Positions 17,018-44,645 of a stretch of DNA of 64,000 bases are shown in pieces (position 1 is the first letter of the stretch; every line of letters begins with the position of its first letter). This DNA is from Candidatus Omnitrophota bacterium (GTDB lineage Bacteria; Omnitrophota; Gorgyraeia; Gygaellales; Profunditerraquicolaceae). Both the position numbers and the translations under genes were made by a program. The stretch covers positions 6,536-70,535 of the forward strand of contig VGKG01000004.1 of NCBI GenBank assembly GCA_016867115.1. Direction: 5' to 3'. Below the pieces are notes generated by a model, which was given only the letters and a program-made list of their open reading frames with translations, did no database searches and was not told the origin of the DNA.

Positions 17018-17983
17018 TTACGCATTTTCTACCAGATAGACCATATCATTACCGAGCATCTGGGCATCAAATTTATTTAAGAGAGATTGGAAGAAGATGG
17101 TCTGCATAGATGTCAACCGGATAAAATTACCCTGCTTCAACGCATGGGAAGCCAGGATGAACATATCCGGATATGAAAAAGAATATCTGTCGATGATCTT
17201 AAAGTTATATTTCTTGAAATACGCCTCTAATGTTTTCGGCGTAAAATAATAAGTATGCACAGGCACCTCTACGCAATCGGGAAAGATCCGGTAAAGGATA
17301 CCGTCGTAATTCGGCACCGCAATGATGAGCCTACCTCCTCTTTTCAATAGTTTTTTAAAAACCTTGAAATACTCTGCCGGCGATGCCGCATGCTCTAAAG
17401 ACCAGTTCATGCGGATACAGTCAAAATCCCGCTCTTCCAGTTCGAAAATAGACGGCAGGACTTTCAATCCGTATTTTTGCGTAATTTTTGTTACCTCAGG
17501 AGACGGCTCCACACCAATTACCTCAAATCCTCTTTTCTTAAGACTATATATAGAGGACCTGTAGCCGAAGAAATGTGTGTTTAATCCGCTGCCGCATCCG
17601 ACATCCAGGAACTTTCCCGGCTTGATCGTCTTTACATAGTCTTTCTTCTTCGGTTGCAGCAATTTATGGAAAATCCCCCCCGAGAACGGCACTAGCGCAA
17701 AGAGCAAATTAAGATACGGAGTTGATACTGCACGGCTGATAGCGTATCTTAGTTTATACAGATATAAGTTACGGTCGGAATAAAATTCATAGTCTTTCGG
17801 ATAAAAACACTTTAAGTCTTCATCTTTGTCTACATCCAAATAGATCAATCCGCAATCACGGCATTTTCTTAGATAGAACTCCCTATCCTGCGGAGCGCAT
17901 CTATGTATAATATCTTTTTGCGCTACCAGTAGATCGGACCTGTCTGAATTACAAAAATCGCAATATCTCGGCATCTCATTCAA
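17018..17983 (-). CDS. Class I SAM-dependent methyltransferase with N-terminal Cys4 zinc-ribbon
   Basis: CDFCNS…CRDCG ribbon, then LDVGCGSGLN motif I and RGGRLIIAV post-motif II. The architecture is reminiscent of NDP-sugar C-methyltransferases. Confidence 0.6.
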   Translation of the reverse strand: MNEMPRYCDFCNSDRSDLLVAQKDIIHRCAPQDREFYLRKCRDCGLIYLDVDKDEDLKCFYPKDYEFYSDRNLYLYKLRYAISRAVSTPYLNLLFALVPFSGGIFHKLLQPKKKDYVKTIKPGKFLDVGCGSGLNTHFFGYRSSIYSLKKRGFEVIGVEPSPEVTKITQKYGLKVLPSIFELEERDFDCIRMNWSLEHAASPAEYFKVFKKLLKRGGRLIIAVPNYDGILYRIFPDCVEVPVHTYYFTPKTLEAYFKKYNFKIIDRYSFSYPDMFILASHALKQGNFIRLTSMQTIFFQSLLNKFDAQMLGNDMVYLVENA

Positions 17984-19461: not shown

Positions 19462-20309
19462 ACCTGAAATACCCTCGGTAGAATGGTTAGCAGCCTGAAG
19501 AACATGTCTAATCTTGCGGCCCGGCATGAACGGTAGGCTGCTCCGGCAAAGATCCTCGCCCTTCTTCTTATCATCAGAAATTTATAATAGGGCGTCTTTT
19601 GCTCCCAATACTTAAAATGAGAATTAACCACATTTATGGTATTTTCTGCATGCCTGACTATATTGTTTGTAATAGAGCTGCTCTGGATCGTGTATTCCCC
19701 GAGTATCTCATGTAAATATTCTATCCTGCATATCTTAGAGAGCCTCAGCCACAGTTCATAATCTTCGACGCCGTTAAAATCCATATTTTCCGAGAATAAA
19801 CCTGCCTCGAAAAGCTTATTCCTTCGCACAATCACTGCTGATGTCGATATGCAATTTCTTCTAAAAAGCAGGTCCGGATAATCCCTGAACGGCCCGTAAA
19901 TAAGCTTTGAGATAACCCTGCCATCCTTTACCAGATATTCGTTATGGCAGATCAGATCCGCATCTCTGTGGACTTGGATATAATTATTAACATTCGCCAG
20001 CTTTTCGCTGGCCCATTTATCATCTGCGTCTAAAAAAGCGACGAAATCGCCTTCGGCTTCTCTGACGGCGCAGTTTCTTGCCCCGCCGATCCCCTTATTC
20101 TTTTGCCTTATTAACTTATATTGCGCACCCGGAAGATTCTTAAAATAATTTTCGATTACCGCGGAAGTGTTATCCGTTGAGCCGTCATCGGTAATGACCA
20201 CCTCGTAATTCCCGTAGGTCTGCTTCCGCACGGAATCTAATGTCCTGCCGATATATTTTTCAGCATTATATGCGGGGATGACCACGCTAAATTTAATATT
20301 TTCTCTCAT
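19458..20309 (-). CDS. Glycosyltransferase family 2
   Basis: FSVVIPAYNAEKYIGRTLDSVRKQT ... DADD signature. Confidence 0.75.
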   Translation of the reverse strand: MRENIKFSVVIPAYNAEKYIGRTLDSVRKQTYGNYEVVITDDGSTDNTSAVIENYFKNLPGAQYKLIRQKNKGIGGARNCAVREAEGDFVAFLDADDKWASEKLANVNNYIQVHRDADLICHNEYLVKDGRVISKLIYGPFRDYPDLLFRRNCISTSAVIVRRNKLFEAGLFSENMDFNGVEDYELWLRLSKICRIEYLHEILGEYTIQSSSITNNIVRHAENTINVVNSHFKYWEQKTPYYKFLMIRRRARIFAGAAYRSCRAARLDMFFRLLTILPRVFQV

Positions 20310-22185
20310 CTTCTATCTTTTTCAACGATTCGGCGATCCTTTCAGATGAGCGGCCGTCTGCCTTGAAAAAACATTGCCGCTCAATGAAGCTCTTTGTCGT
20401 TTCAGTGGGGTGAAATTGATGGGGATTGCTGGCGAAATTTTCTAATCCCTTTCTTAATTCTAAGACCGAGTAAAACTTCGGGATTTCCACTTCTAAATCA
20501 CGAAAGACAGAAGCATTGTAGCCTGCCGTAAGCCACTGAAATATAGGGGCGCCCTGCAGTAAAGCCTCTTCCGCCACCGTAGAGTAAGTGAATATTACCA
20601 GATCCGCCATCTTAAGGTTCTCATCGAGCGTCCCTTTTGTTGATATAATCTTATGCCGGTAAGGGCGGTATTCCCGTAAATCCTCCATTCTCGCAAACGG
20701 ATGACTTCTGATATAAAGCTTTATATTCTTAAGGCCCTCGGCGGCGGCGCTGGCTGCCTGGACCATTTCAAAATCATGCCGGGGATTCAGAGTGGCTACA
20801 AGCAGCACGTTATAAATTTCCTTATCCTGCCTGTTTTCCTGCCGGGCTGAGATCCTAATATTTTCATGCCTCGGAGAACCGGTAAGCAATATTCTTTCCT
20901 GCGAAAATCCGTCTTCTATGAAGATATCTCTCCCTAATTCGCCCATAGCAAACATGTAATCAGGTACCGGGACGCTACGATTATCAGGCTTACCGTACAG
21001 CTCTCTTTCACGGTCGAGCGCAAGGAAAGTCTTTTCTCTGTTATAACTGGCATGCTGGATCGTACAATGAATTGCTTCCGGCCTTGCGGAGCGGCCTCCT
21101 TCATACAATGCCCTTGAATGCGGATAAAATTCTAAGAAAGTAAAGTTTATCTTCGGCCCGTACTCTACAAAAGCCCTGCGGCTTGAAGATTCTATGAGCG
21201 TAAAAAGCGGAATTGTAGAACTAACAAAATCGCATATCAGAAGATGGTTTAAGAACGGAAAAAAATCTAATCCTTCTTCGGTAAAAAGATCCCTGAATGA
21301 ACTTAAACGTCTAAATCTCAGGTACCGGTATAGAGGCCGAAAATCCAAAGCGGCAAACAGGACGTCTTTTAAGCTAAGAAATTTTTGCAAAAATATAAGT
21401 TGCGGGTGCCCTTTTACGCGGCTCAGGATCTGTTTCAGGGAACGTTTCTTTGCTCCCGGCTTATGAATCGGTGAAAGCCATAAAAGCCATGCATGCGTAA
21501 AGCCTTTCAATTTTAATTGCCCGGGGAGGGATTTAAAATAAATATCGTTTAGTGACTCTGCGTCATCACCGGGACAAACGCTCCAATCCCAAAATCCCTG
21601 AAAGAGGACATCAGGCCTTGACTTTGGCAGATCGGCAAATACTTTCAATGCAAAAAGAGCGGATAAAGTATCAAAAATCAATTTCATCCGAGAGAAAGCC
21701 CCCTTGGCCAAGGCAAGGAGTCTAATAAAATATCTTTTTATGCTCTTTCGGATGCGGTAGCGGCTGGAAAGCGCCTCTCTGATCTCGCAGGGGGCGCCGT
21801 ATAGAACGATATCTTTTATGTTTTGCCGTTTAGCCACATTCAAAATAGTGAAAACTTGCAGCATCACGTTAAAAGTAGGGTCGCTTTCTACATCCTTAAA
21901 ACTAAACTTGGTATACCACCAGGGATTGCCTCTTCCCGGAAACTCAAGTGCCTGCCTTAGGGTCCTTCCGTTACAGGCTGTTGCGCTGATGCGCGCAACC
22001 ATATCTATGTAGGCAAGACGCGCCTTTTCCCTTACCGCATTCATTTCTTTCCTGCCCAAAAGAACCTCGCCTCTGTAAGAGCTTGTAAACTTATATTCAG
22101 CTTCCGGCGTTAAGAAACTTAGTACCGTAGCATCCGGAGGGATTATCCGCGAGTCGAGTTTATAAACAATATGGAGACTGGACAT
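20293..22185 (-). CDS. Uncharacterised large glycan-locus protein (possible GT-B-like surface carbohydrate biosynthesis protein)
   Basis: 630 aa with no confidently recognisable family. The C-terminal part (…NVLLVATLNPRHD…LVIFTYSTVAEEALLQGAPIFQW) resembles the C-terminal Rossmann half of TagF/KpsS/Maf-type transferases. Coding status is well supported by length and context. Confidence 0.55.
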   Translation of the reverse strand: MSSLHIVYKLDSRIIPPDATVLSFLTPEAEYKFTSSYRGEVLLGRKEMNAVREKARLAYIDMVARISATACNGRTLRQALEFPGRGNPWWYTKFSFKDVESDPTFNVMLQVFTILNVAKRQNIKDIVLYGAPCEIREALSSRYRIRKSIKRYFIRLLALAKGAFSRMKLIFDTLSALFALKVFADLPKSRPDVLFQGFWDWSVCPGDDAESLNDIYFKSLPGQLKLKGFTHAWLLWLSPIHKPGAKKRSLKQILSRVKGHPQLIFLQKFLSLKDVLFAALDFRPLYRYLRFRRLSSFRDLFTEEGLDFFPFLNHLLICDFVSSTIPLFTLIESSSRRAFVEYGPKINFTFLEFYPHSRALYEGGRSARPEAIHCTIQHASYNREKTFLALDRERELYGKPDNRSVPVPDYMFAMGELGRDIFIEDGFSQERILLTGSPRHENIRISARQENRQDKEIYNVLLVATLNPRHDFEMVQAASAAAEGLKNIKLYIRSHPFARMEDLREYRPYRHKIISTKGTLDENLKMADLVIFTYSTVAEEALLQGAPIFQWLTAGYNASVFRDLEVEIPKFYSVLELRKGLENFASNPHQFHPTETTKSFIERQCFFKADGRSSERIAESLKKIEDERKY

Positions 22186-22190: not shown

Positions 22191-22949
22191 TTATATAAGA
22201 AAAGGATTTGATGCGGAAACATTTAAAGTGAGTTCATCCCGCGAAGGGGTAAACTCTATGGCTCCGCCTGCAGCTTTTACCAATGCAAGGCCGCCTGCCG
22301 CATCCCATATCTTTATGTCGTTCTCATGATAGAAGTCGGCCCTTCCGCATGAGACATATGCCAGAGATAACGCTGCCGAACCGAGCAGGCGCACCTTTTT
22401 AAAGGTCCTTATATCTTCTATGGCTTTAAGCACTGAGTCTTTGGAGAAATCGGTGCCGGCCGGAAATCCCGTACACAAAACTGCCTTATGTTTATCCACC
22501 ACCATGCTTACGCCTATAGGTTCGCCATTTAGCCAGGCGCCGGCTCCGACAATGCCGCTAAAGGCCTCGCCTCTGTTAAAATCGTAGACTACCCCGAGTA
22601 TGGGCTCCATGCCTTTCCAGAGGCCGATAGAAATACAGGATAGCGGTATGCCGCGGGAAAAATTGAGGCTTCCGTCAAGAGGGTCAACGATCCATCTCGG
22701 ATCTTTCTCCTGTGATGTTCCCTGTAAAAAACCCTTCTCTTCAGAAATAATAGAGTATCCGGATTTCAGCTTAAGGCGCTCTATGATAGAATCTTCAAGT
22801 TTTTTATCCGCCTCTACCTTGACGTCTCTGTCCATGTCTAAAGTAACTGCTTTTGTATCTTCTGTCGTTTTCAGGATATCCCGGGCGGCATTCCTTGCCG
22901 CATCTTGAGCCAAAGACAATAAACTCTCCAAATCAGCGCGTTGCATCAT
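22191..22949 (-). CDS. Inositol monophosphatase family phosphatase (SuhB/CysQ-like)
   Basis: WIVDPLDGSLNFSRGIPLSCISIGL and the C-terminal WDAAGG motif. Confidence 0.8.
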   Translation of the reverse strand: MMQRADLESLLSLAQDAARNAARDILKTTEDTKAVTLDMDRDVKVEADKKLEDSIIERLKLKSGYSIISEEKGFLQGTSQEKDPRWIVDPLDGSLNFSRGIPLSCISIGLWKGMEPILGVVYDFNRGEAFSGIVGAGAWLNGEPIGVSMVVDKHKAVLCTGFPAGTDFSKDSVLKAIEDIRTFKKVRLLGSAALSLAYVSCGRADFYHENDIKIWDAAGGLALVKAAGGAIEFTPSRDELTLNVSASNPFLI

Positions 22950-23872
22950 AATATCTTCCTTAGTGCTTCAATAAGGTTGTCCACTGCCTCCATCTCCATA
23001 TTACGCCGGCACTCCGAAGTATAGGAACCGATGTGCGGCGTTAATATGACCTGCTTATATTTAAGTAAGGCACCGGAATATGGCTCACTCTGAAAAGTAT
23101 CCAGCCACGCCCCTGCCACCCGCCCACTGTCAAGCGCAGCTATAAGCGCGCCTTCATCAATCAGTCCACCCCTTGCGGCATTTAATATATAAACGCCGTC
23201 TTTCATAAGGTCGAATTGGCTTTTACCAAGCAAGCACTTTTCGCCGCTGCAGTGCAGAGTGATGACATCTGCGGCTTTAAGGGCATCGTCCAGATCTACA
23301 ACGGGAAAACCGCTGACTTTCCCTGAATACGCGGGGTCAACAGCGTAAATATCAGCCCCAAAGGCATTCAGCAATTGAGCGACCCTCTGTCCGATATTGC
23401 CGAATCCGATAACGGCAACATTCATTCCGTTAAGTTGCCTGCCGATTATCTTAAACCACTTATTATTATGAAGCGACGCATCCATCTGGCGGATATGGCG
23501 TAAGATACTCAATAGACATCCGACAGTAAGTTCTGCGACTGCTTCGATAGGAGCAGTTGGTGTATTCTTGACGGTAACCCCGAATTCCTTTGCTGCATCA
23601 AGGTCTACGTTTGAAAGCCCTGAGCCGCATCTTGAGATCACCTTCAATTCTGAATTCTTCAAAACATCCCTATCCAAAGGCTCAAGCCCGGCTATGATCC
23701 CACTCACCCCCGGTAATAAGTTAATCAACTCATCTTTCGTCAGTCTACGCTTAAAAGGATTTTCCACGACCTCAAACCCCATGCCTAATAGCTTTAACAA
23801 GGGGTCTTTATCCTCTTCCGAGAAAGTCGAAGTTCCTAACAATATTTTGATTTTAGATTTTCTTTCCGTCAT
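22946..23872 (-). CDS. D-isomer-specific 2-hydroxyacid dehydrogenase (PGDH-like)
   Basis: NVAVIGFGNIGQRVAQLL NAD-binding site and a catalytic-domain pattern. Confidence 0.8.
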   Translation of the reverse strand: MTERKSKIKILLGTSTFSEEDKDPLLKLLGMGFEVVENPFKRRLTKDELINLLPGVSGIIAGLEPLDRDVLKNSELKVISRCGSGLSNVDLDAAKEFGVTVKNTPTAPIEAVAELTVGCLLSILRHIRQMDASLHNNKWFKIIGRQLNGMNVAVIGFGNIGQRVAQLLNAFGADIYAVDPAYSGKVSGFPVVDLDDALKAADVITLHCSGEKCLLGKSQFDLMKDGVYILNAARGGLIDEGALIAALDSGRVAGAWLDTFQSEPYSGALLKYKQVILTPHIGSYTSECRRNMEMEAVDNLIEALRKIL

Positions 23873-23877
23873 ATTCT

Positions 23878-24663
23878 TTACTTGCTTAATTGTGGGTCTT
23901 TAAAGAGCATGTAAGTTCCCGGAGATTTATTGTCATAGGTGTTTTCAAGAACCCGTTCCTTTGCCTTGACAAGGGCAAATGGCGACATCCACTCTTTATA
24001 GATACTGACGGGCCTGGCCCGGCTTATAAATTTATCCGCATCAGTTGCGTTCCCGGTAACTTTTATAGACTCTGTCTTTTCTATAAGTAAGATGTAGCCT
24101 CGCGGGGCGAGTTTCTTTATCTCCTCAATGACGCTGCGGCAGAACTCATCAGGAAGATGCTGAAGCACTGTGCAAATCAAAGCAAAGTCAAAGATCCCTT
24201 TACCCATCTGGCTTATCCGGTCTAGCGTATCGCATTGATAGAATTCAATATCGGGAAGGAGCGTTTTTGCTACATCCACAAGGTGTGCCTCTCTTTCAAA
24301 GCCGACCACCCTGTCGGCAAATTCTTTAAGCACCATTATCAAGCGGCCGTAACCGCAACCTACTTCGCAAGCAGACCGGATGCGGGCCTCGGGGAGAACT
24401 TCGCGCATTATTGAACGGATCGTCTTTCTCTCCAGATAATTTCTCACATTATCCGTAGGCCCTGAAACATCGCTTACCCCGGCAGCAGTCCAGACAATGC
24501 GCGCATTACGGTCTCTCCATTTACCCCATAACTTCCGTCTGACTTTAATAATTACGGCTTTTGCCAGATACCCGAACGGGAGAGCCGTGGCATCGGGCAA
24601 TAATAACTCCTTTTTCTTAAAGAACTTGATTTCATTTTGATTCATGCAAAGACACCTCCGCAC
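23878..24663 (-). CDS. Class I SAM-dependent methyltransferase
   Basis: EVGCGYGRLIMVL motif I. 261 aa. Confidence 0.65.
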   Translation of the reverse strand: MRRCLCMNQNEIKFFKKKELLLPDATALPFGYLAKAVIIKVRRKLWGKWRDRNARIVWTAAGVSDVSGPTDNVRNYLERKTIRSIMREVLPEARIRSACEVGCGYGRLIMVLKEFADRVVGFEREAHLVDVAKTLLPDIEFYQCDTLDRISQMGKGIFDFALICTVLQHLPDEFCRSVIEEIKKLAPRGYILLIEKTESIKVTGNATDADKFISRARPVSIYKEWMSPFALVKAKERVLENTYDNKSPGTYMLFKDPQLSK

Positions 24664-25294
24664 TTTTTGCCTTATATTGAAGCCAGTTGGCGATCAAGTG
24701 GTCTAAGACCACATGGATATCTTCTACCGGGCCGTATTCGCCTTTCGGGGTATTTACATGTACCACCACGTCAGAGATGTTTTTAAGCTTCCCCCCGTCA
24801 AAACCGATGAAACTGATCACTCTGCCTCCTGCCGCCTTTATCCATTCTGCGGCTTCGATGATATTCGGCGAATTCCCGCTTGCCGAGATAGCTATCAATT
24901 TATCACCCGGGCGGTAATGAATCTTAAGCTGGTTGACAAATATATTGTTGTAACCGTCGTCATTTGCAATCGCAGTCATCAAAGCAGCATTGCCTGACAG
25001 GGCAAGCGCCCGGAAAGGAGTTTTGATCCCGGCCTTCTTTAACACGTCCATGCCGATATCATTGGCCATGTGCGAGGCAGTGGTCGCAGATCCGCCGTTT
25101 CCCGCAAGAAATATGGTATTTCCATTTTTCTGTGCGTTTTCAAGCTCTTTAACAGCATCTGCGATCGCCTTCGTGTCAAGCTGGCCGAGCAGGGTTGAAA
25201 GGTAATTTAGGTAGCCCCTGGCAAACTGCTCTACGTTTTTAGACTCGTTAAAAGTTCTTTCTATATTATTCATGTTCCCTCCCCGATATTCCAT
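24632..25294 (-). CDS. SIS-domain sugar-phosphate isomerase, GmhA-like (sedoheptulose-7-phosphate isomerase family)
   Basis: FLAGNGGSATTASHMANDI and ISASGNSPNIIEAAEWIKAAGGRVISF. 220 aa. Confidence 0.75.
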   Translation of the reverse strand: MEYRGGNMNNIERTFNESKNVEQFARGYLNYLSTLLGQLDTKAIADAVKELENAQKNGNTIFLAGNGGSATTASHMANDIGMDVLKKAGIKTPFRALALSGNAALMTAIANDDGYNNIFVNQLKIHYRPGDKLIAISASGNSPNIIEAAEWIKAAGGRVISFIGFDGGKLKNISDVVVHVNTPKGEYGPVEDIHVVLDHLIANWLQYKAKSAEVSLHESK

Positions 25295-25295
25295 T

Positions 25296-26333
25296 TTAGT
25301 CAGGACAATCTATGTTATAAGCTTCTCGCCAGTCCCTGTCCGCATAATATATCTTATAAACAAGCCTCATTGTATCCAGTGCGTCGGTGCTCGTTCCGGA
25401 TTTAATTTTAGTGCCATTGACAATAGCATCCGTAAATTCATTTATTTCATCCCGCCATGAATTATCCTCGACATAAGTCTTGGTATCTTCATCGAATGCG
25501 CCAGTATCCGATTCATCGCGTCTGCCGACTGTGAGTTTTTCCTCGCCATAACTTTTTGAGCCCGACAAAATGCCGCTAAGCTGGATAAAGCCCTCAGTTA
25601 AGCTTATATCCAGGTGAAATCTGTGCTGCCACTGCGTTGCGCTTGAATGCAGGAACGCGATCCGCCCCTTCTTATCCCGCATCAGCGCATATGCATTATC
25701 CTCAACATCGTGATCCCAGTAGCTGTTGGATACATAGCTCTTGACCTCTTCAAACTCGCCACAGAAAAGCCGCATCAGGTCTACCATATGTATTCCCTGG
25801 TCAAGGAGTATTCCGCCTCCGGAATATCTACGCTCTGCCCTCCAGCCGCCTGAAAACGGAATGATCTTGCTTTTGCCGTAAACTCCACTGAGATTTATAA
25901 TTTCGCCTAATTGTCCCGACTTTATGATCTTCAGGGCATCGCGCACAGAATCGTGGTAGCGATGGTTAAAGCCGTACTTTAATAACAGTTTGGGATGCTT
26001 CTTCTCTGTCTCGATTACTTTTTTAATGTCTTCCACATCCCGTCCCGGCGGCTTCTCGCAAAAAACATGCAATCCTCTTTCAAGGCCGGCGATGGTAACC
26101 TCTGCGGCAAGATAATTCGGCAGACTTACAAATAATATGTCCAACGGCTCTTCCAGCAACTTGAGGTAATTGGGGAAAAAACCTACTCCTTCAGGCATAA
26201 TGCCGGATTCCTTAAAATTCTTGTCGCAGACGGCAACGGTTTTCAAGAAGGGATTTAGATCGATAAACTGCCTTCGTCTTTTGCCTACTACGCCATAACC
26301 GGCAATTCCGACTCTTAATAACTTTTTCTTCAC
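25296..26333 (-). CDS. Gfo/Idh/MocA family oxidoreductase
   Basis: LRVGIAGYGVVGKRR N-terminal Rossmann. 345 aa. Confidence 0.8.
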   Translation of the reverse strand: MKKKLLRVGIAGYGVVGKRRRQFIDLNPFLKTVAVCDKNFKESGIMPEGVGFFPNYLKLLEEPLDILFVSLPNYLAAEVTIAGLERGLHVFCEKPPGRDVEDIKKVIETEKKHPKLLLKYGFNHRYHDSVRDALKIIKSGQLGEIINLSGVYGKSKIIPFSGGWRAERRYSGGGILLDQGIHMVDLMRLFCGEFEEVKSYVSNSYWDHDVEDNAYALMRDKKGRIAFLHSSATQWQHRFHLDISLTEGFIQLSGILSGSKSYGEEKLTVGRRDESDTGAFDEDTKTYVEDNSWRDEINEFTDAIVNGTKIKSGTSTDALDTMRLVYKIYYADRDWREAYNIDCPD

Positions 26334-26350
26334 CTTAGGACCCCCCTGAT

Positions 26351-27127
26351 TTATTTCTTGATATACAAAGGCATAAGATCATCGTTTTTCATCAAGCCCC
26401 TGACCCTTTCCAGGTCTTGCGGCGTATCCACTCCCACCGCCTGAGAAGACGTCAAAACCGCCCTTATCTTGTATCCATGTTCAATTGCTCGCAGCATATC
26501 CACGGATTCTACTATCTCAAGCGGCGTTTGAGGCAGCTTTGAAAAAAGGAGTAGAAAGTCTTTACGAAAAGCGATGATCCCCAGTTGCTTGTATCTTTTA
26601 TAAGGCAGCCCGGAAGCCTTGTGTACTGAAGGAATGGGTTCCCGTGAAAAATATATGACGTTATTATCGGTATCGCAGACTGTCTTAACTACATTGCTGC
26701 TATTGAACTCTTCATCGCTATTTATCTCGGAGATCAGATTGGTGCAGGTAATCCCCGGCTCGTTTAGCAGGGGGGCGACTACGGAATCTAGCATCTCGGG
26801 CCTTACCATCGGCTCATCGCCCTGGACATTGATTACGATATCTGCTTCGACTGAAAGAGATGCCTCTATAATCCTGTCTGTGCAGCGCTGATGCGACGGA
26901 GAGGTCATTACCGCCTTACCGCCGCCAGCCTTTACTGCATCGAATATTTCCCGGTCGCAGGTAGCCACAATAACCCCGCTTACAGAACGGGTAAGGGCCA
27001 CCCTCTTTCTGATATGTTCGATCATGGGTAGACCATGTATATCAAAAAGAGGTTTCCCGGGAAACCTGGTTGAACCCATACGTGCCGGTATGATCGCAAT
27101 AACTTTCATCTTATTTTTTGCGGGCAA
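26351..27127 (-). CDS. KdsB-family cytidylyltransferase (CMP-3-deoxy-ulosonate synthetase-like)
   Basis: MKVIAIIPARMGSTRFPGKPLFDIHGLPMIEHIRKRV is the KdsB-type N-terminus (ARxxSTRxPGKPL). 258 aa. Confidence 0.75.
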   Translation of the reverse strand: MPAKNKMKVIAIIPARMGSTRFPGKPLFDIHGLPMIEHIRKRVALTRSVSGVIVATCDREIFDAVKAGGGKAVMTSPSHQRCTDRIIEASLSVEADIVINVQGDEPMVRPEMLDSVVAPLLNEPGITCTNLISEINSDEEFNSSNVVKTVCDTDNNVIYFSREPIPSVHKASGLPYKRYKQLGIIAFRKDFLLLFSKLPQTPLEIVESVDMLRAIEHGYKIRAVLTSSQAVGVDTPQDLERVRGLMKNDDLMPLYIKK

Positions 27128-28094
27128 GGACCCTCATATGTGAACTGAGATTATTCCTCCTGATCCAATCCTGTAATTCATCCTTTGCTTCGCTTTTACC
27201 TTTTCTGGCAAACGTCTCCCAGAATTTCCCTAACTTTATACTATCATTAACTATCGCTCCCTCTACAATATCCCAATCCAGTTGTCCGGGCGTTTCGATC
27301 TTAACCGCCTCAAACCCTTCTCTGGTCAAAAGATGCCTGATTGATCCGGGGTTAAAGAAATTTATATGGCAGGGCGGATAAATCGCCTTTGAATCCTCCC
27401 AGAGGATCCGGATATCAAAACCCTCTCCATTTAAGGTAGTCAGAAAAAGCCAGCCGCCCTTTTTAAGAAGGCGATAGACCGAAGAAAGAAAGACCGAAGG
27501 GTCATATAAATGCTCGAATAGCTCGAATGCCGTCAACAGGTTGAAACTATTATCATAACCTTTAAGCTCTTCTAAAGTGGAGCATTCTGCCTTTAAATCC
27601 AGCTTCCCGCAAAGTTCTGCCTGTTCAAGCGAAGGCTCGATAGCAATATAGCTGCTCTGTCCCCAGAGTTTATGCAGCTCATCAAGAAAAAGGCCAAACC
27701 CTGCGCCGATATCTCCGATCTGCCAGGCCGGATCTTTACCGAAATATTCTGTGATGAACTCCGCCCGGGGCCTGAAGATTTTCTCTCTTCTTGCCTCGGC
27801 AACCGGCATAAAAAACTCTTTTACCCAAAAATCAGTTGAGGCGGACCGACCATAAAACTCTTTTAAACTATCGAATGAGAGCCTGGTCTTTGCATACAGA
27901 GTTGAGCAGTTAAGGCAAGTCACGTATTCAAAACAGCTCTTCTTAAACTCAAGGATATGCTTATCTTCCTGGCAAGCAGGGCACTTTACCTTAACTAATG
28001 CTTTTTTGCTATTCAAGAAGGCCTTGCAGTCTTCCTGGACCAGCTTAAGGTAAAGTTTTAACTTATCTTTATCCCGGATATCCTTCTCTTTCAA
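27111..28094 (-). CDS. Class I SAM-dependent methyltransferase with N-terminal Cys4 zinc-ribbon (putative sugar C/O-methyltransferase)
   Basis: CPACQ…CLNCS ribbon, then IGAGFGLFLDEL motif I and KKGGWLFLTT. Confidence 0.6.
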   Translation of the reverse strand: MKEKDIRDKDKLKLYLKLVQEDCKAFLNSKKALVKVKCPACQEDKHILEFKKSCFEYVTCLNCSTLYAKTRLSFDSLKEFYGRSASTDFWVKEFFMPVAEARREKIFRPRAEFITEYFGKDPAWQIGDIGAGFGLFLDELHKLWGQSSYIAIEPSLEQAELCGKLDLKAECSTLEELKGYDNSFNLLTAFELFEHLYDPSVFLSSVYRLLKKGGWLFLTTLNGEGFDIRILWEDSKAIYPPCHINFFNPGSIRHLLTREGFEAVKIETPGQLDWDIVEGAIVNDSIKLGKFWETFARKGKSEAKDELQDWIRRNNLSSHMRVLARKK

Positions 28095-28098
28095 AAAA

Positions 28099-28881
28099 CT
28101 ATCCTTTCTTATTGACCAAAGCTTTGACCTCGCTCAGTCCGCCCCGGCACATCTCACCGAGAAACATAAAATCAACGCTATAGCCGATGAATCTATAGCC
28201 TGCATTTATCTTCTCTTTCACCAGCTTAGGGTCAGGAGGCACAATATGACAGCCGGCAGTAACCTCCAGATTAGAGGAAATTTTCTGTATCTGCTTCATC
28301 GCCTCGATAAAACTAGGATGTGAAAACTCACCCGGCACCCCCAATGAACCGGAAAGGTCGTAAGGCCCGATAATGAAAGCATCTATCCCCTTAACCGTGA
28401 GTATACTCTTAAGGTTTTCAACCGCTTTAATATGCTCTATTTGGACAATAACCATACTGTTAGCATCAGCCCATTTCCTGTATTCATCGAACTTTGTCCC
28501 GTAACCTTGTGCCCGGTAAAGCCCGACTCCCCTTGTCCCTTTAGGCGGATATTTTACGGCATTAACCGCCTTTTCAGCGTCTTCCCTTGTGTTTACCATG
28601 GGCACAATAACGCCATGTGCACCCAAATCCATCACCCTTTTTATAAGATTCGGGTTATTTTCTCCTACGCGCACTAAAGGGACGACTCCGCATAACTCGA
28701 TTACTTGTATAAGACTTTGCGCTTCGGAAAGGGTTATTGCCGAATGCTCCATATCAACGGTCAGCCAGTCAAAACCCGCTCTCGCCATGATCTCAGCAAC
28801 GGCAGGATGACCCAGCGTGACCCACGAACCGAAAGTTAACTTTTTATTTTTTATCTTTTCTTTTAAACTAGTTGCTGCCAT
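28099..28881 (-). CDS. HpcH/HpaI-family (class II, pyruvate-dependent) aldolase / citrate-lyase-beta-like
   Basis: AVAEIMARAGFDWLTVDMEHS…VRVGENNPNLIKRVMDLGAHGVIVPMV pattern. 260 aa. Confidence 0.75.
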   Translation of the reverse strand: MAATSLKEKIKNKKLTFGSWVTLGHPAVAEIMARAGFDWLTVDMEHSAITLSEAQSLIQVIELCGVVPLVRVGENNPNLIKRVMDLGAHGVIVPMVNTREDAEKAVNAVKYPPKGTRGVGLYRAQGYGTKFDEYRKWADANSMVIVQIEHIKAVENLKSILTVKGIDAFIIGPYDLSGSLGVPGEFSHPSFIEAMKQIQKISSNLEVTAGCHIVPPDPKLVKEKINAGYRFIGYSVDFMFLGEMCRGGLSEVKALVNKKG

Positions 28882-29698
28882 GCTTATAACCCTCCTTCGT
28901 TTCCTTAACTGCCAAGAAGTTTGTAAACCCTCTTTCTTTGTTTATATAAAGACGGAACCCGCAGCGATTAAACAAATCCACATAGTCATTAATGCGGTAG
29001 AAATGGTCTCCCGATTCATTATCCGCAGAGAAAAGTTGATTGAATTTCGGGAAGATCTCGTATACAACGCGCTTCTTAAGCTTCCTTACGGGTAAAATAA
29101 CCTTTATCGTGTTCTTTATATACTCTTTAATAAAATCAGTTGAGTTTACCGGTGATTCTCCGATGATCAGCACTACTCCGGAAGGCTTCAGCACTCTTCT
29201 GATCTCGCCAAGCAGCCTCACCGGATCATCGGCATGGTGGAATGCCTGTGACATAAAACAGAAGTCAAGCGACTGATCAGGCAATTTTATATCATAGAAA
29301 CTGCCGATCACCCGGGTTATCTTATTGCCGCAGCCATTAAATAAATCTATCACCAGGGGAGCGATTTTTAATAAGCGGTGCTTTGATATCTCGGTAGCAT
29401 AGATCTTCTCTATATCATCTACCCTGGATAGCAAAGCAGTTGTCCAACATACTCCTGCAGCCAGATCCGCACCTACTCCCTTAAGCGGTATTCCCATTTT
29501 CCTGGAAAAATCTAAAATCGACTCGTATTCGGCATAATATGTAGTTTTTTTCTTCAAATACCGGAGTATTTTTTCAGTATTACCATCAAGGATATACCAA
29601 TCTTTATTCTTCTCTTCCTCCTCGTTGCTCCAGTACCGGCCCGAATAAATAGTCTCAATCTCTTTATCGGTTAACCAGGATTGTATAGCGGTTTCCAT
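28868..29698 (-). CDS. Putative SAM-dependent methyltransferase
   Basis: KGVGADLAAGVCW (motif I-like) and VLKPSGVVLIIGE. Weaker than the other methyltransferases. Confidence 0.5.
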   Translation of the reverse strand: METAIQSWLTDKEIETIYSGRYWSNEEEEKNKDWYILDGNTEKILRYLKKKTTYYAEYESILDFSRKMGIPLKGVGADLAAGVCWTTALLSRVDDIEKIYATEISKHRLLKIAPLVIDLFNGCGNKITRVIGSFYDIKLPDQSLDFCFMSQAFHHADDPVRLLGEIRRVLKPSGVVLIIGESPVNSTDFIKEYIKNTIKVILPVRKLKKRVVYEIFPKFNQLFSADNESGDHFYRINDYVDLFNRCGFRLYINKERGFTNFLAVKETKEGYKHGSN

Positions 29699-30379: not shown

Positions 30380-31911
30380 GCGTTATCTTTTATCAGAATA
30401 TCTGCGGTTCGTATGGAAAGATCCTCTCTTTTTATCCCGAATAAAACCGGAAAAAGATACACTGTGAAAAAAACCGTTACCGTATACAGTGCCCCTGATA
30501 GTATAAAACTGACTATGATATATCTGCCGATATTTAAAAAAGTATCTACAAAAAAGGCAATAAGAAAACTTATCGTCAATAAACATATAACGCTGATTAT
30601 CTGATGCGCCGCATATTTCCAAAATGGAAGGTCCAGAAGTTTTGCATTGAAAAATAACATGACATTAACCGCGATAAACTGTAAGATCACCATTTTAATA
30701 GCTAGCCCTGTTGCCCCCATATTTAAGCCCATATTAGCCCGGGGCGCGATCAGGAAGAAGGTCACAGGTAGGCCGATAAGCATAAAAAGTACGCCTATAT
30801 TGCGGTAAAGAGCGGTCTTTCCCGAGGCATAGAAAACCGAACCGCTTAACTGGCCGTAGGTCTGATGAATAGGATAGAATGCCATGATAGCTAAAGCAGC
30901 AGTACCGCCTCTGAACTTATCCCCTCCGAATATATAAATAACCTTACCTGCCTGAACGGCAATAAAGCAGCAGAAATATGCCGCCACTGAATAAAGCAAA
31001 GGTATATAGCGCCTGAAAAGCCTTGCCATTTCGACAAGATCCAGCTTTCCGTACGCGATGGAAAACTCTCTCATGAGCAGCGGCGTCATTGAGCTCGTAA
31101 AAAGAAAACATAGCGCCCCTATTTGGTAGGACAGACCGAAAAAACCCTGCTGGATACTTCCGCCGAAATATTGCAGGAGCCACCTGTCCAGTATTCCGGC
31201 TATTAATCCGACTGATGCATAGACAAAGAGCGGGTGGCTATAAGTATAAAATTCCTTTAAATATGCTTTGAACTGAGTAGCTGATAATTTATATTTTTCC
31301 AGGATCAAATGCCCTTTATCCTTCATGATCCAGATAAACAAAAAGCCTAATAAGAGGAACATCAGATAGTGATAATAGAAAAAACCTGCCAGGTTCAGAT
31401 TGCCGGAGATAAAAAGCAGGATTATGAGCACCAGCCCCAAAGCCCTTTGCAGCATCCGGGCAAGCTCCGCGGAAACGGTCACGCCATAAGCGTCAGCCAT
31501 CTTGTTCAATACCTGGGTGATCCAGGAAAGGATCCCCCATATGGCAGCCATATAAACGTAAAGCAGCGCCTGACCCGGCCATAACTGCCTGTAACTACGG
31601 GTTAACTGGACAAGGAGAACAAAGCCAACGACTGCCAGGGAGGCAGCGATGGTAAAATACATGTAGAAATAGACCAGCCCCCTGTCTTTCTGCCTGTGCG
31701 AAAGCTTCGTGTAAAAACCTACGGAAGTACCCATATCCAGGAATGCGGTAACCTCAGTAAAAAATCCGGAAAGGAAATTAAAGTCCCCGTAGGATTTCGG
31801 ACCAAGCCCCCTCGGTATTATTGTCTGGGTAACCATATTAATGACAAGTCCAACTAAGTTTGTGGAAAGTTTATAAAAATATCTTTTTTTAAGAGAGTCT
31901 TTTGACATCAT
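30376..31911 (-). CDS. Oligosaccharide flippase (Wzx / polysaccharide biosynthesis protein, MOP superfamily)
   Basis: About 510 aa, 12-14 TM helices and a Wzx-like topology. Start chosen at the internal MMSK, giving a 4-nt overlap. The track ORF extends to 31947. Confidence 0.7.
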
Positions 31912-33656
31912 GCTCCGCCTAAAAGCGTCTCCAGAGCCTTTGTCCATTCATTCAACCAGTTCTCGCTAGTCAGGGCAAATCTCTGGCAGAATTTATTTCT
32001 GGCATCCTGTATCCCAGGCTGTTTCCACCATCCCGCAGAATCATGCCATATCTCATTTACCTTTTTCGCTGCGCTTTCAGGACTTCTATGCAGGATACCC
32101 GCCTTCCTTAACAATTCAAAATAATCCTCTGCTTCAGGACGCATTAAATAGACATCGTGGTCCCAGTAAAAGACAGAAGGGACATTTATGACCAGCGCCT
32201 CTAAAAACGAGGTATGCGCATGGTCAGCTACGACAAGTTTTGCCTTTTTCATCCATTCGACCAGTCTGCCTCCGGTGACTACGGTAAGGTCCGGATGTCC
32301 CTCTTTTATCGTAGGCACAACATTCCAGCCGCCTTCGATATTGGGACGAAAAAGCGTTTCTTTGACTATCTCTTTCCTTAACGAACGGAAAAATGATTTC
32401 ATATTACCCAGATATCCAAACATATCCTCAGGCTGCATGCAGGCTTCAAATCTATACTGATATTTAGGCAGGCTGGTGCTCACAAAAAGGAGGTTCTCTA
32501 ACGAGCAGGAATGCTTATCTCTTACCTTTGACAGATACGGGACAGGGAGTGGCTTGGCCCTGCCTTCCTTATCTTTCCATCCCCAGGTAAAAAAGGCGTC
32601 TTTCTCCAGGCATAATTTCTCATGCGGGATAGAGAAGCTGACCCCGTATCCTCCGCCGTGCTGAAAATCCAGCAGTTTTGCTCCGTTAACAGCTGACTCC
32701 GCCGCAAAGAACTTGAACCTTTCATTGAAATACCAGTCGCCCGCAGAGCCCACGGCTTTGACCTTCCGGCTATTCTTTACGCTGCCATGGTAGGAATCAT
32801 AATCTTCCACATAGCACATGGGAATGGCGTACGGCAATACCTTATAAAGCAGCTCCCGGAAACGGTCTGAGCCGCCTTCCAGAGTCAACTTCTCTCTGGC
32901 CCCGGGCGAAAAGTTATCGTACGATTCTGAGTTCCCGGCATTGAAATCTTTAAAGCCTACCTTCCTGATCCCCGTTCTCCATTTCAGCTGCATTGAATCA
33001 ACCGGCTGTAGCTGAGACATCCCGCTAAAGATGACCTGCGGCTGAAAGATATCCGAAGAATTCAGGAAAAACCTGAATATCTTCCTTTTAATAGTCTCGT
33101 TCTTGGATCTAGAAACCGCATTCTCCTTATACTCGATGACGGCGGTATTTTCCGGAAAAATAGCATGCGCGATAAGGCTGAAGAGTTTGAGGTTATAATA
33201 ATCGTCGTTTATTTTGCCGTTAAGCAACAACGTATCGTATGTATCAATACTGGCCAGGCTGCACTGTCCGTATGGCAACGCATGGGTATACACGTCTGGG
33301 AAAAGATCGAAAGCGTGTTCCAACCTTCTGTAGCGGTCATAAAAGATCCCAATAAAATGCATCAACCAGTACCCCAGAAGGACCTCCCAGTAGCGCAAGG
33401 GGTATGAGGCACCATGCAAAACATTCAGCTTATCAGACACCCTGGGCAATAGCTCTGCATAAATAACCTGGCAGTAATCCGCGGCCTCCTTTATCTTGGT
33501 CGCAGGCTTGAACGGAGAGGGGATCATCTCGTAGGAGCGGGCTTCAAGTAATTTAATATTATCTTTGCCTGCCAGGCACCAGGGACCGAGAAGAAAAAGC
33601 TTACCGTCCAGATCCCAGATACTTGAAATCCCTGTAGTCGCCAGATATTTATTCAT
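31908..33656 (-). CDS. Uncharacterised large glycan-locus protein (possible transferase, LIC12162/TagF-like C-terminus)
   Basis: 582 aa. No clear family, but the C-terminal segment KAKLVVADHAHTSFLEALVINVPSVFYWDHDVY resembles a GT-B C-domain. Confidence 0.5.
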   Translation of the reverse strand: MNKYLATTGISSIWDLDGKLFLLGPWCLAGKDNIKLLEARSYEMIPSPFKPATKIKEAADYCQVIYAELLPRVSDKLNVLHGASYPLRYWEVLLGYWLMHFIGIFYDRYRRLEHAFDLFPDVYTHALPYGQCSLASIDTYDTLLLNGKINDDYYNLKLFSLIAHAIFPENTAVIEYKENAVSRSKNETIKRKIFRFFLNSSDIFQPQVIFSGMSQLQPVDSMQLKWRTGIRKVGFKDFNAGNSESYDNFSPGAREKLTLEGGSDRFRELLYKVLPYAIPMCYVEDYDSYHGSVKNSRKVKAVGSAGDWYFNERFKFFAAESAVNGAKLLDFQHGGGYGVSFSIPHEKLCLEKDAFFTWGWKDKEGRAKPLPVPYLSKVRDKHSCSLENLLFVSTSLPKYQYRFEACMQPEDMFGYLGNMKSFFRSLRKEIVKETLFRPNIEGGWNVVPTIKEGHPDLTVVTGGRLVEWMKKAKLVVADHAHTSFLEALVINVPSVFYWDHDVYLMRPEAEDYFELLRKAGILHRSPESAAKKVNEIWHDSAGWWKQPGIQDARNKFCQRFALTSENWLNEWTKALETLLGGA

Positions 33657-39743: not shown

Positions 39744-39749
39744 TGTAAG

Positions 39750-40628: not shown

Positions 40629-40632
40629 AGCC

Positions 40633-41340
40633 TTAGAGAAACAACTCAGCCATCACTTCTACGCCTTCGCCATTGATGATCTTCATGCTTTGCGGGCCAT
40701 GGTTAAAAATCAGGTCTGCTACCGACATGCAGGGCAAAAAGGGGGCGTGGAGTTGGCTGTAGATAGGATGATGAAATTCCTGGAAGGAAACATTTATGCC
40801 GGCATTCTTAAATGCGTCCAGGTCCAGATACTCCCTGCCGGATATGCCGGAGAAATAGCTATCCGCTTTTATTTTCTTACATATATCCAGAATCAACTCG
40901 CCTGACTTGCCTTCTGCTCCGAGTTCAGAAGCAAAAACCATTCTGGCGTTTATTCCGAGGACCTTGAATGCGAATCTCAGCAGAGAAACGTTTAAAGCGC
41001 ATAAATTTACGGCTGATGTATCCAGTGCTTCGCGCAGTTCATTTTCATAGCGGTCAAAGAATTTGCCGCGCTTATAACTCAGATAAACCGCATTCCACCA
41101 CTTTTCCTTCCAGCGCGGCTCATCGCTTATCGCTACGTCCCTGATCAGTGTATCCAGCGAACGGATAACCGGGACAGTAATCCACTGCCAGCCGTCCTGC
41201 GTCCTGATCTTATTGCGGTTCTGAAAGTAGTTCTTCCTGAACTGCACGTTATCCAGGATAACGATGCAATCAGCCTGGGATGCCTTGTGAAAGAATCCAA
41301 GCCACGGAAGATGCTCGGGCTGGTGTATGGTCACTATCAT
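40633..41340 (-). CDS. WbqC-family protein
   Basis: MIVTIHQPEHLPWLGFFHKASQADCIVILDNVQF is the WbqC-like N-terminal pattern. 235 aa. Confidence 0.7.
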   Translation of the reverse strand: MIVTIHQPEHLPWLGFFHKASQADCIVILDNVQFRKNYFQNRNKIRTQDGWQWITVPVIRSLDTLIRDVAISDEPRWKEKWWNAVYLSYKRGKFFDRYENELREALDTSAVNLCALNVSLLRFAFKVLGINARMVFASELGAEGKSGELILDICKKIKADSYFSGISGREYLDLDAFKNAGINVSFQEFHHPIYSQLHAPFLPCMSVADLIFNHGPQSMKIINGEGVEVMAELFL

Positions 41341-41342
41341 GT

Positions 41343-43691: not shown

Positions 43692-43699
43692 CTTACTCT

Positions 43700-44644: not shown

Positions 44645-44645
44645 A

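Follow-up and report, generated by a model that had tools for sequence, protein, structure and literature searches.

How does a cell make the substrate of a KdsB-like cytidylyltransferase that is encoded with no KdsA nearby? The question is raised by a block of eight genes at positions 22191-28881 of a 64 kb stretch of DNA (the window) from a metagenome-assembled genome of Candidatus Omnitrophota, a diderm host, in which a pyruvate aldolase of the HpcH/HpaI family is encoded close to such a cytidylyltransferase. To our knowledge, all of the established routes to ulosonic acids activated with cytidine monophosphate (CMP), namely those to 3-deoxy-d-manno-octulosonate (Kdo) and to sialic acid, legionaminic acid (Leg), pseudaminic acid (Pse) and 2-keto-3-deoxynononic acid (Kdn), begin with a KdsA- or NeuB-type synthase that depends on phosphoenolpyruvate (PEP). 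Kdo aldolase (EC 4.1.2.23) and the sialic acid lyase NanA interconvert pyruvate and an aldose with a 3-deoxy-2-ulosonic acid, so that the chemistry of an aldolase-based route is feasible. Both of these enzymes are catabolic, NanA being a class I Schiff-base aldolase of another family, and we know of no case in which either feeds a CMP-transferase in a glycan cluster. An earlier note on this DNA had proposed an aldolase-based path to a Kdo-like sugar and knew of none that was established; no description of one was found in the searchable open-access literature, and a full-text search of open-access papers returned no link between a PF03328 aldolase and CMP-sugar biosynthesis.

In this study, the block was compared with related loci from bacteria and archaea. 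With somewhat better than an even chance, the aldolase makes a Kdo-like ulosonic acid that is then activated by the KdsB-like enzyme. This reading of the sequences follows from the linkage of the two genes, a natural fusion between them, the lack of KdsA or NeuB partners, an altered Kdo pocket and an adjacent putative transferase. The observations on which it is built are the gene content, the catalytic residues, the linkage across phyla, the absence of KdsA, the gene fusion and the changes in the sugar pocket.

Linkage of the aldolase to the cytidylyltransferase

The gene for the class II metal-dependent pyruvate aldolase (28099-28881, minus strand; PF03328, E = 3.8e-37, 128 bits) and that for the KdsB/KpsU-family cytidylyltransferase, the proposed CMP-ulosonate synthetase (26351-27127, minus strand; PRK13368 and TIGR00466), were followed across genomes, as the earlier note had suggested. 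Open reading frames (ORFs) were called in 85 aldolase-anchored loci and were searched with the window proteins, with proteins of an alternative cassette and with the Escherichia coli Kds proteins; neighbors within 8 kb were counted in the 52 non-redundant loci that extend at least 6 kb to either side of the aldolase. A strong gene of the CTP_transf_3 family is present in 51 of these 52 loci, and in 45 of them it lies within 2.5 kb, making the CMP-transferase the gene that is most tightly linked to the aldolase. An oxidoreductase of the extended short-chain dehydrogenase/reductase (SDR) or Gfo type is found in 45/52 loci, a 2-hydroxyacid dehydrogenase in 41/52, a HAD or inositol monophosphatase (IMPase) type phosphatase in 36/52, NeuB in 7/52 and KdsA, KdsC or KdsD in 0/52. 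The cytidylyltransferase is oriented with the aldolase in 74 of 81 loci and lies at most 60 bp from it in 34 of the 81, often with an overlap of 4 nt.

The absence of KdsA near the KdsB-like gene was borne out: no KdsA homologue was found in the 64 kb window, and the KdsA, KdsC and KdsD proteins of E. coli gave zero phmmer matches in any frame of the whole window, even at E ≤ 10. No gene in the related loci (L001-L085 and L090-L169) has KdsA or KdsD as its best match, and KdsA was not found in 160 related loci; KdsC gave two weak matches (48 and 60 bits), at a distance of about 9 kb from HpcH. The idea that the aldolase generally substitutes for NeuB by acting on a diamino-hexose was rejected, as NeuB is within 8 kb in so few loci (7/52) and a DegT aminotransferase is nearby in only 16 of 76.

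Archaea, the Candidate Phyla Radiation (CPR), Chloroflexi and Firmicutes are not known to make lipopolysaccharide (LPS) or Kdo. The aldolase/CTP_transf_3 pair is nevertheless present in 28 of 31 loci from these groups, the remaining three being on truncated contigs. Furthermore, a search of 1.8 billion cluster representatives yielded a natural CTP_transf_3::HpcH fusion, P0314 (478 amino acids), which is a classical sign of two enzymes sharing one pathway. Its N-terminal half shares 49% identity with the cytidylyltransferase of Methanococcoides; the C-terminal half shares 50% identity with the window aldolase and retains a histidine that is characteristic of the clade (see below). Four contigs, which come from two or more independent samples, carry the identical sequence within a Gfo-SIS-2Hacid cassette. 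Viewed from the other partner, HpcH accompanies the KdsB-like gene in 19 of 26 KdsB-like-anchored metagenome loci with at least 3 kb on each side, and in 30 of 39 with at least 1 kb.

The arrangement as a whole also recurs. The window order, i.e. methyltransferase, HpcH, methyltransferase, KdsB-like gene, Gfo, SIS, methyltransferase, 2-hydroxyacid dehydrogenase, IMPase and a protein of about 640 residues, is repeated in three Nitrospirales contigs (L004, L005 and L010) and was seen in loci from Elusimicrobia, Planctomycetia, Terriglobia and Nitrospinales. Its recurrence in other phyla indicates that the arrangement is not due to chance.

Two observations concern the surroundings of the pair in other organisms. 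In Methanococcoides sp. AM1 (L001 16191-18647), a module consisting of HpcH, CTP_transf_3, 2-hydroxyacid dehydrogenase, SDR, cyclase and HAD genes lies about 5 kb from the N-oligosaccharyltransferase gene aglB (STT3), and the sugar may therefore belong to an archaeal N-glycan. In 21 of the 76 related loci (for example, L002 10783-12156), HpcH is closely preceded by B12-binding radical S-adenosylmethionine (SAM) genes, which are candidates for C-methylation of the sugar acid; a radical SAM gene of the window (41343-42518) was noted alongside them. They recall the unassigned C10 CMP-ulosonic acids reported in Magnetospirillum (bioRxiv 10.64898/2026.04.20.719630).

The aldolase

As had been proposed, the window protein is a true pyruvate aldolase of class II and belongs to the sugar-acid type; its catalytic residues are intact, and HpaI, GarL, RhmA and YfaU are its best matches. 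The HpaI, GarL and RhmA models give it 194, 168 and 152 bits, respectively, and all of the named models of this group remain far under their equivalog cut-offs (194.1 versus 368.8, 167.8 versus 406.75, 165.9 versus 393 and 152.5 versus 441). The nearest solved structures are those of YfaU (the best match; 2VWS), GarL and HpaI, at 130-139 bits. Citrate-lyase-like specificity, the alternative that the earlier note had raised for this enzyme, was rejected because the named matches are all 2-keto-3-deoxy-acid aldolases; there were zero CitE or citrate-lyase matches among either the NCBIfam models or the PDB entries.

The catalytic residues His46, Arg71, Glu149 and Asp175 are kept in all 76 sequences of the clade. 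His212 is likewise invariant (76/76), whereas the equivalent residue of YfaU is a conserved leucine, Leu216. This leucine is one of the `bulky active-site residues' that have been mutated to enlarge the nucleophile pocket (PMC7610986), and in the hydroxypyruvate-accepting aldolase SwHKA the position is occupied by Phe210, in contact with C3 of the donor (PMC10099721). The invariant histidine hints, but does not prove, that the donor or the proton-transfer chemistry of the clade may differ from that of ordinary pyruvate aldolases. In vitro, polyhydroxy aldehydes, among them glyceraldehyde, erythrose and ribose, serve enzymes of the PF03328 family as acceptors for pyruvate or hydroxypyruvate (PMC7610986).

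The clade is tight, with 57-96% identity overall, 64-96% among the best 120 database matches and 57-67% across bacterial phyla and archaea. It is carried by at least 596 species, counted as one genome per GTDB species, and the wider family comprises 1,435 cluster representatives at E ≤ 1e-30. Bacterial carriers belong to the Acidobacteriota, Nitrospirota, Desulfobacterota, Planctomycetota (including anammox bacteria), Omnitrophota, Elusimicrobia, Bacteroidia, Dehalococcoidia, Firmicutes and CPR/Patescibacteria; archaeal carriers include Methanococcoides, Methanomicrobiales, Hadarchaeia, Thermoplasmata, Nitrososphaeria and Micrarchaeota.

Among more distant members of the family, HpcH domains with 40-44% identity to the aldolase of the window occur joined to a Ser/Thr protein kinase, to DJ-1/PfpI domains or to SH3 domains, and there are tandem double and triple HpcH proteins (P0388, P0383, P0402, P0431 and P0345). 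These kinase, DJ-1/PfpI, SH3 and tandem fusions were set aside as unrelated to the present system.

The cytidylyltransferase

The KdsB-like protein shares 38% identity with E. coli KdsB; among PDB entries, the capsule-specific enzyme KpsU (1GQ9) matches it best. For a comparison of the pockets, it was aligned together with 26 other HpcH-linked homologues (n = 27) with E. coli KdsB, the numbering of which is used here. The ligands of cytidine triphosphate (CTP) and magnesium, Arg10, Arg15, Lys19, Gln98, Asp100 and Asp235, are kept in 27/27 clade members. Four positions of the sugar domain have changed: H181Q (27/27), Y185I (23/27), E210D (27/27) and Q211M (26/27). KpsU retains the His, Tyr and Glu-Gln of KdsB at these four positions. 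In E. coli KdsB, Tyr185 and Gln98 hydrogen-bond O5 of Kdo (PMC12199768). Because the CTP/Mg ligands are kept and the four sugar-pocket positions are changed, the enzyme would be expected to perform KdsB chemistry on a sugar that is probably not authentic Kdo.

In about one third of the related loci, a PseF-like instead of a KdsB-like cytidylyltransferase is located beside HpcH, irrespective of the type of accessory cassette. The type of cytidylyltransferase was considered as a guide to the size of the sugar and was discarded as uninformative, as both types pair with HpcH regardless of the cassette.

The putative transferase

The block is followed by a gene for a protein of about 630 amino acids (20293-22185, minus strand), a putative CMP-ulosonate glycosyltransferase in which no Pfam domain was found. 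It matches TIGR04326 weakly (E = 7e-15, 54 bits against a cut-off of 250), and its C-terminus gives an equally sub-threshold match to BFO_1060 (E = 9e-7, 28 bits against a cut-off of 200). Members of the BFO_1060 family are transferases for Pse/Leg derivatives in Tannerella forsythia (PMC5420450). The AlphaFold2 model (predicted local distance difference test score 92.8, predicted template modelling score 0.92) has a GT-B fold, and its best Foldseek matches are UDP-GlcNAc 2-epimerases and the CDP-alditol transferases TarL/TagF. QH, HP and EE motifs are invariant in 37 homologues, the latter two being His495-Pro496 and Glu539-Glu540. Homologues of this protein come after the module in 20 of 76 loci, so that the module appears to comprise synthesis, activation and transfer functions.

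Accessory genes

Profile searches with Pfam and NCBIfam confirmed the eight genes and the families to which the earlier note had assigned them. All of them are on the minus strand, with gaps or overlaps of at most 32 nt, which implies one transcription unit. In addition to the aldolase and the cytidylyltransferase, they comprise an IMPase-family sugar-phosphate phosphatase (22191-22949; PF00459, E = 1.6e-47; PDB matches to SuhB/IMPase), a D-2-hydroxyacid dehydrogenase (22946-23872; PF02826/PF00389), a class I SAM methyltransferase (23878-24663; Methyltransf_25/11/31, with a weak match to TIGR03587, a Pse-associated methylase), a GmhA-like sugar-phosphate isomerase of the SIS_2 family (24632-25294; PF13580, E = 1e-19), a Gfo/Idh/MocA oxidoreductase using NAD(P) (25296-26333; PF01408/PF22725) and a second SAM methyltransferase (27111-28094; Methyltransf_23/11). 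The zinc ribbon attributed to the latter is indeed present as four N-terminal cysteines (CPAC at residue 38 and CLNC at residue 60); 26 of the 76 related loci have a homologue, which is mostly located between HpcH and the KdsB-like gene. A paralogue of this zinc-ribbon methyltransferase (17018-17983; CDFC and CRDC motifs, Methyltransf_23) lies downstream, adjoining Wzy. The first methyltransferase is conserved in the closest loci of the window cassette type. A further SAM methyltransferase directly upstream of HpcH (28868-29698, minus strand; Methyltransf_11) is a possible member of the module, as it has the same position in the three Nitrospirales contigs (299 bits).

Two mutually exclusive cassettes accompany the aldolase and cytidylyltransferase core. 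The first combines the 2-hydroxyacid dehydrogenase with an extended SDR and a HAD_2 phosphatase, with or without a PF04199 `cyclase', whereas the second, to which the window belongs, combines Gfo, SIS_2, the 2-hydroxyacid dehydrogenase and IMPase, with or without methyltransferases. Thus, Gfo/Idh/MocA and the extended SDR exclude each other across the related loci, and HAD_2 takes the place of IMPase in the SDR cassette, in which HpcH and the dehydrogenase are directly adjacent. The dehydrogenase co-varies with the oxidoreductase and with the phosphatase: both dehydrogenase and phosphatase are present in 36 of 51 loci, neither in ten and only one in five (Fisher p = 8e-7, uncorrected for phylogeny). 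Their genes are often adjacent whichever phosphatase family is involved, and in the window they overlap by 4 nt. The data show an accessory sub-module whose predicted substrate is either a sugar phosphate or a hydroxy or keto acid that carries a phosphate; it may supply the donor (for example, hydroxypyruvate), prepare the acceptor or tailor the product.

The dehydrogenase resembles 3-phosphoglycerate dehydrogenase (PGDH) but is not a canonical one. Its best PDB matches are PGDHs, TIGR01327 gives it 218 bits against a cut-off of 454, and it keeps the catalytic residues Arg234, Glu263 and His280, with a conserved IAGxE in place of the VRS motif of PGDH. We take the arginine of the latter motif to bind the phosphate of the substrate. 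The loss of this arginine weakens the candidate role of a canonical PGDH making phosphohydroxypyruvate; a role with glycerate or hydroxypyruvate is possible. The isomerase scores 85-101 bits with GmhA models (cut-offs 209-320), its best PDB matches are phosphoheptose isomerases and the SxSGxSPN loop aligns (ISASGNSPNI versus YSTSGKSPNI). The nearest PDB entries to the Gfo/Idh/MocA protein are inositol 2-dehydrogenase and glucose-fructose oxidoreductase, and its candidate roles are oxidation or reduction at either C1 or C3 of the sugar.

In some loci, the phosphatase is replaced by an AroB-related sugar-phosphate cyclase, TIGR04425. This cyclase (440 bits against a cut-off of 400) occurs at L013 7545-8606, at L172 5176-6243 and in the P0276 locus, in Gfo/SIS/2-hydroxyacid dehydrogenase cassettes without a phosphatase, and suggests an alternative phosphate-eliminating step, possibly with a carbocyclic intermediate.

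Proposed pathway

On balance, the block probably represents one form of a horizontally mobile module of wide distribution, by which a Kdo-like 2-ulosonic acid is made, activated and transferred with no PEP-dependent synthase involved. The carbon chain would be built by the class II aldolase of the HpcH clade, through addition of a pyruvate enolate (or that of a 3-substituted pyruvate, for example hydroxypyruvate) to an aldose phosphate or a sugar aldehyde; in the window version, the acceptor aldose would be provided from a ketose phosphate by the GmhA-like SIS isomerase. A phosphate would be removed by the IMPase-type phosphatase, and the Gfo/Idh/MocA protein, the PGDH-like dehydrogenase and the methyltransferases would prepare the substrate or tailor the product. 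The KdsB-like enzyme would then convert the 2-keto acid to its CMP ester, from which the adjacent 630-residue GT-B protein would move the sugar into a polysaccharide assembled by Wzx/Wzy. The direction of the aldolase reaction, its donor and acceptor, the order of the steps and the structure of the sugar are those that we infer from the genes. Should the donor be hydroxypyruvate, delivered by the PGDH-like dehydrogenase and the phosphatase, the sugar could be 3-hydroxylated, and should the acceptor be a heptose phosphate, it could be longer than C9.

The core of what had been proposed, an aldolase-based route to a CMP-ulosonate, is supported by the linkage, the fusion, the catalytic residues and the absence of KdsA from the 160 loci. 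It falls short in other respects: a NeuB-family synthase in the same operon was overlooked, there are related loci without HpcH, and it was a guess to have the phosphatase, isomerase and oxidoreductase tailor the acid. As a co-varying accessory sub-module, these genes could instead supply the donor or the acceptor of the aldol reaction.

Alternative sources of the 2-keto acid

Several points weigh against the aldolase-based pathway. The physiological roles known for PF03328 aldolases are catabolic (PMC7610986). The scheme itself does not explain the PGDH-like dehydrogenase, which is present in 41/52 loci and co-varies with the phosphatase. The KdsB-like protein exceeds the NCBI cut-offs of its family (PRK13368/NF009905, 317.8 versus 255; NF003952, 280 versus 193; TIGR00466, 174.4 versus 155.2), and the diderm host probably has a housekeeping kdsA elsewhere. 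Furthermore, HpcH is missing from seven of the 26 KdsB-like-anchored loci, in most of which the KdsB-like gene is followed by a lower-scoring 2-hydroxyacid dehydrogenase, and two of three loci anchored on the GT-B protein have no aldolase-type gene within 10 kb; in one of the GT-anchored loci (L171) the dehydrogenase directly follows the cytidylyltransferase. Such loci imply that the 2-keto acid could also originate in other ways than through an aldolase.

The dehydrogenase of the HpcH-less loci belongs to a different subfamily, with scores of 130-170 bits as against 230-450 bits, and these loci may therefore represent a separate, though related, system. A full set of PF04199 `cyclase', KdsB-like gene, dehydrogenase and ~640-residue protein is present in three of them (L112, L131 and L162). 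The aldolase is thus the usual and not the obligatory partner of this set of cytidylyltransferase and transferase, and in the relatives that lack it an aldonic acid may be dehydrogenated to give the 2-keto acid. As an observation in its own right, an aldolase-less system can be delineated in L112, L131, L162, L149 and L171, consisting of the `cyclase', the KdsB-like enzyme, the distinct dehydrogenase and the ~640-residue GT-B-like protein, which may oxidize its substrate to a 2-keto-aldonic acid. The third GT-anchored locus (L170) has an HMGL-like TIM barrel in the place of HpcH, next to CTP_transf_3, HAD and glycosyltransferase genes; it is part of a 577-residue fusion (6829-8562) of an HMGL-like domain (PF00682) to an MptE-like/Maf-type domain, at the position expected for HpcH. 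The HMGL-like family also includes pyruvate-utilizing aldolases of another type.

These loci lead to the principal alternative, which we regard as unlikely: the 2-keto acid would be made by oxidation of a sugar phosphate and not by the aldolase. The SIS protein would convert a ketose phosphate to an aldose phosphate, which Gfo, or the SDR with the PF04199 `cyclase' as a lactonase, would oxidize to an aldonate phosphate; the 2-hydroxyacid dehydrogenase would give the 2-keto-aldonate phosphate, like a KguD-type reductase in reverse or PdxB in the forward direction, and IMPase or HAD would release the free 2-ulosonic acid. HpcH would be an accessory enzyme, perhaps one that delivers or consumes a donor of the hydroxypyruvate type, or one that scrambles stereocentres through retro-aldol and aldol reactions. 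Each enzyme would thereby perform a reaction typical of its family, and the mutual exclusivity of SDR with Gfo and of HAD with IMPase, the co-variation of the dehydrogenase with the phosphatase and the oxidoreductase and the frequent adjacency of dehydrogenase and phosphatase would all be accounted for, as would the HpcH-less loci with `cyclase', KdsB-like gene, dehydrogenase and ~640-residue protein. However, it is HpcH that is most tightly linked to the cytidylyltransferase, to the point of fusion in P0314, and ten of 51 loci with both of these genes have neither dehydrogenase nor phosphatase. Moreover, the dehydrogenase of the HpcH-less loci is of the other, lower-scoring subfamily, and the oxidative route leaves an invariant, highly conserved aldolase with no clear job.

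The family cut-offs passed by the KdsB-like protein, and KpsU as its best solved relative, fit a different explanation, in which the gene is an extra copy like kpsU that boosts ordinary CMP-Kdo from housekeeping KdsA and KdsC for a Kdo-containing O-antigen or capsule, and the aldolase and its neighbors serve another sugar or substituent. The group 2 kps clusters of E. coli contain kpsU and kpsF and no kdsA. The Omnitrophota host has O-antigen-ligase-like genes, and the search for kdsA covered the 64 kb of the window. Nevertheless, the explanation appears quite improbable: the same cytidylyltransferase clade accompanies HpcH in archaea, CPR, Chloroflexi and Firmicutes; the fusion with HpcH exists; the SIS protein is GmhA-like and not KpsF/KdsD-like, with zero KdsD matches in the window; and four residues common to KdsB and KpsU, including the Kdo O5 ligand Tyr185, are systematically replaced (PMC12199768).

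Lastly, the aldolase and dehydrogenase might jointly convert pyruvate and a short aldehyde into a small acid of the 2,4-dihydroxy or 4-hydroxy-2-oxo kind, which would decorate another repeat-unit sugar (for example, the upstream nonulosonic acid) in acyl, ether or ketal linkage, with the cytidylyltransferase functionally independent. Aldol addition followed by 2-oxo reduction is indeed a well used in vitro cascade for this enzyme pair (PMC7610986; PMC10127515), the two genes are adjacent in the SDR/HAD cassette and the operon is rich in tailoring enzymes, but this is very improbable, as it leaves the near-universal cytidylyltransferase neighbor and the fusion unexplained, most loci have no NeuB or aminotransferase genes nearby and the module has no conserved acyl-activating enzyme or carrier protein.

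The surrounding operon

The block is located in a surface-polysaccharide operon on the minus strand that spans about 8.5-46.8 kb of the window, a 38 kb cluster of the O-antigen/capsule type. Its GC content is 0.39-0.48, compared with 0.50-0.55 in the housekeeping flanks (PGK, GAPDH, Fmt and PriA). The 5' part encodes a MarR-type regulator and Wzz, followed by a nonulosonic acid module. Two methyltransferases, a carbamoyltransferase, a LIC12162-family transferase, a Wzx-like flippase and a hexapeptide acyltransferase precede the eight genes, and glycosyltransferases of the GT2 family, Wzy, more tailoring enzymes, an initiating Bac_transf protein, a PglF-like dehydratase and an O-antigen-ligase-like protein come after them. 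Tailoring genes are abundant, with at least seven methyltransferases, the carbamoyltransferase and acyltransferases.

The KdsB-like gene without KdsA had been noticed correctly, but the NeuB-family PEP-dependent synthase and the second cytidylyltransferase of the operon had not. The NeuB-family gene (39750-40628, minus strand; PF03102, E = 3.6e-56; TIGR03569, 206 bits, below cut-off) lies about 11 kb upstream of the block and encodes 292 residues without an SAF domain. It is paired with a PseF-like cytidylyltransferase (42394-43041, minus strand; PF02348; TIGR03584 PseF, 124.7 bits, N-terminal half only), so that the operon has two cytidylyltransferases; the PseF-like enzyme has an obvious PEP-dependent partner, whereas the KdsB-like enzyme has none. 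This module (37673-45620 and 31908-35462, minus strand), which is complete and separate from the block, further comprises a LegB-like dehydratase, two DegT aminotransferases, a PIG-L deacetylase, a radical SAM/SPASM protein, WbqC and a PseG-like protein, and is followed by the carbamoyltransferase and the LIC12162-family transferase. Its product is likely to be a heavily modified sugar of the Pse/Leg type. PseF models match no more than the N-terminal ~125 residues of the PseF-like ORF, and the ORF overlaps the longest radical SAM/SPASM ORF (41343-42518) by 125 nt; either the radical SAM protein starts further downstream or the C-terminus of the cytidylyltransferase is unusual.

Other features of the window include two Wzy_C genes for proteins resembling O-antigen ligases or O-oligosaccharyltransferases, one at the end of the cluster (8577-9800) and the other 10 kb past it (58570-59916). 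A 775-residue protein (6240-8567) has a spermine-synthase-like region as its sole recognized domain, and a tandem pair of GalT/HIT-like genes (48102-50127) adjoins GAPDH.

Significance and comparison with known systems

Taken across bacteria, CPR and archaea, the loci may constitute a cross-domain module family in which a dedicated class II pyruvate aldolase replaces the KdsA/NeuB-type synthase and an undescribed CMP-ulosonic acid is put into surface glycans, a generalization to which we would give slightly less than an even chance. If true, this would be a second, independent solution to CMP-ulosonic acid synthesis and a biosynthetic role for PF03328, a family with known catabolic roles (PMC7610986). 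The module reaches lineages with almost unstudied surface glycans, such as Omnitrophota, anammox Planctomycetes, Dehalococcoidia, Patescibacteria, Hadarchaeia, Thermoplasmata and methanogens. It points to an unrecognized, widespread cell-surface sugar, to new CMP-sugar transferases and to an aldolase and CMP-transferase pair for the biocatalytic preparation of ulosonic acid donors. Untargeted CMP-sugar profiling has begun to uncover unassigned CMP-linked keto acids (bioRxiv 10.64898/2026.04.20.719630), which makes the prediction directly testable.

The pathway, if real, would be a variant within ulosonic acid biosynthesis and not a new kind of system. With the Kdo pathway (KdsD, KdsA, KdsC and KdsB, with KpsF and KpsU in E. 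coli), it shares a SIS isomerase, an enzyme condensing C3 with Cn units, a phosphatase and a CTP_transf_3 enzyme. However, its putative condensing enzyme is a metal-dependent PF03328 aldolase in place of the PEP-dependent synthase KdsA, its isomerase is GmhA-like (SIS_2) and not KdsD/KpsF, its phosphatase is IMPase or HAD_2 and not KdsC, and the pocket of its cytidylyltransferase differs from those of KdsB and KpsU at His181, Tyr185, Glu210 and Gln211. The module also adds two oxidoreductases and methyltransferases and occurs in organisms without LPS.

The NeuB/PseI/LegI and NeuA/PseF/LegF pathways resemble the module in that a CMP-activated 2-keto-3-deoxy sugar acid (here proposed) is formed in a surface-glycan cluster with a dedicated transferase; the C-terminal domain of the GT-B protein even resembles, by a weak match, the Pse/Leg transferases of T. 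forsythia (PMC5420450). Unlike these pathways, the module lacks the set of UDP-sugar dehydratase, aminotransferase and hydrolase, and NeuB is present in only seven of 52 loci. Lastly, the aldolase shares its fold family and its catalytic His, Arg, Glu and Asp with HpaI/HpcH, GarL, RhmA/YfaU and SwHKA. It differs from HpaI, GarL and RhmA/YfaU, which belong to operons for the catabolism of aromatic compounds or sugar acids, in its context of glycan biosynthesis, and it has an invariant histidine at the donor-pocket position that is occupied by leucine in YfaU-type enzymes and by phenylalanine in SwHKA.

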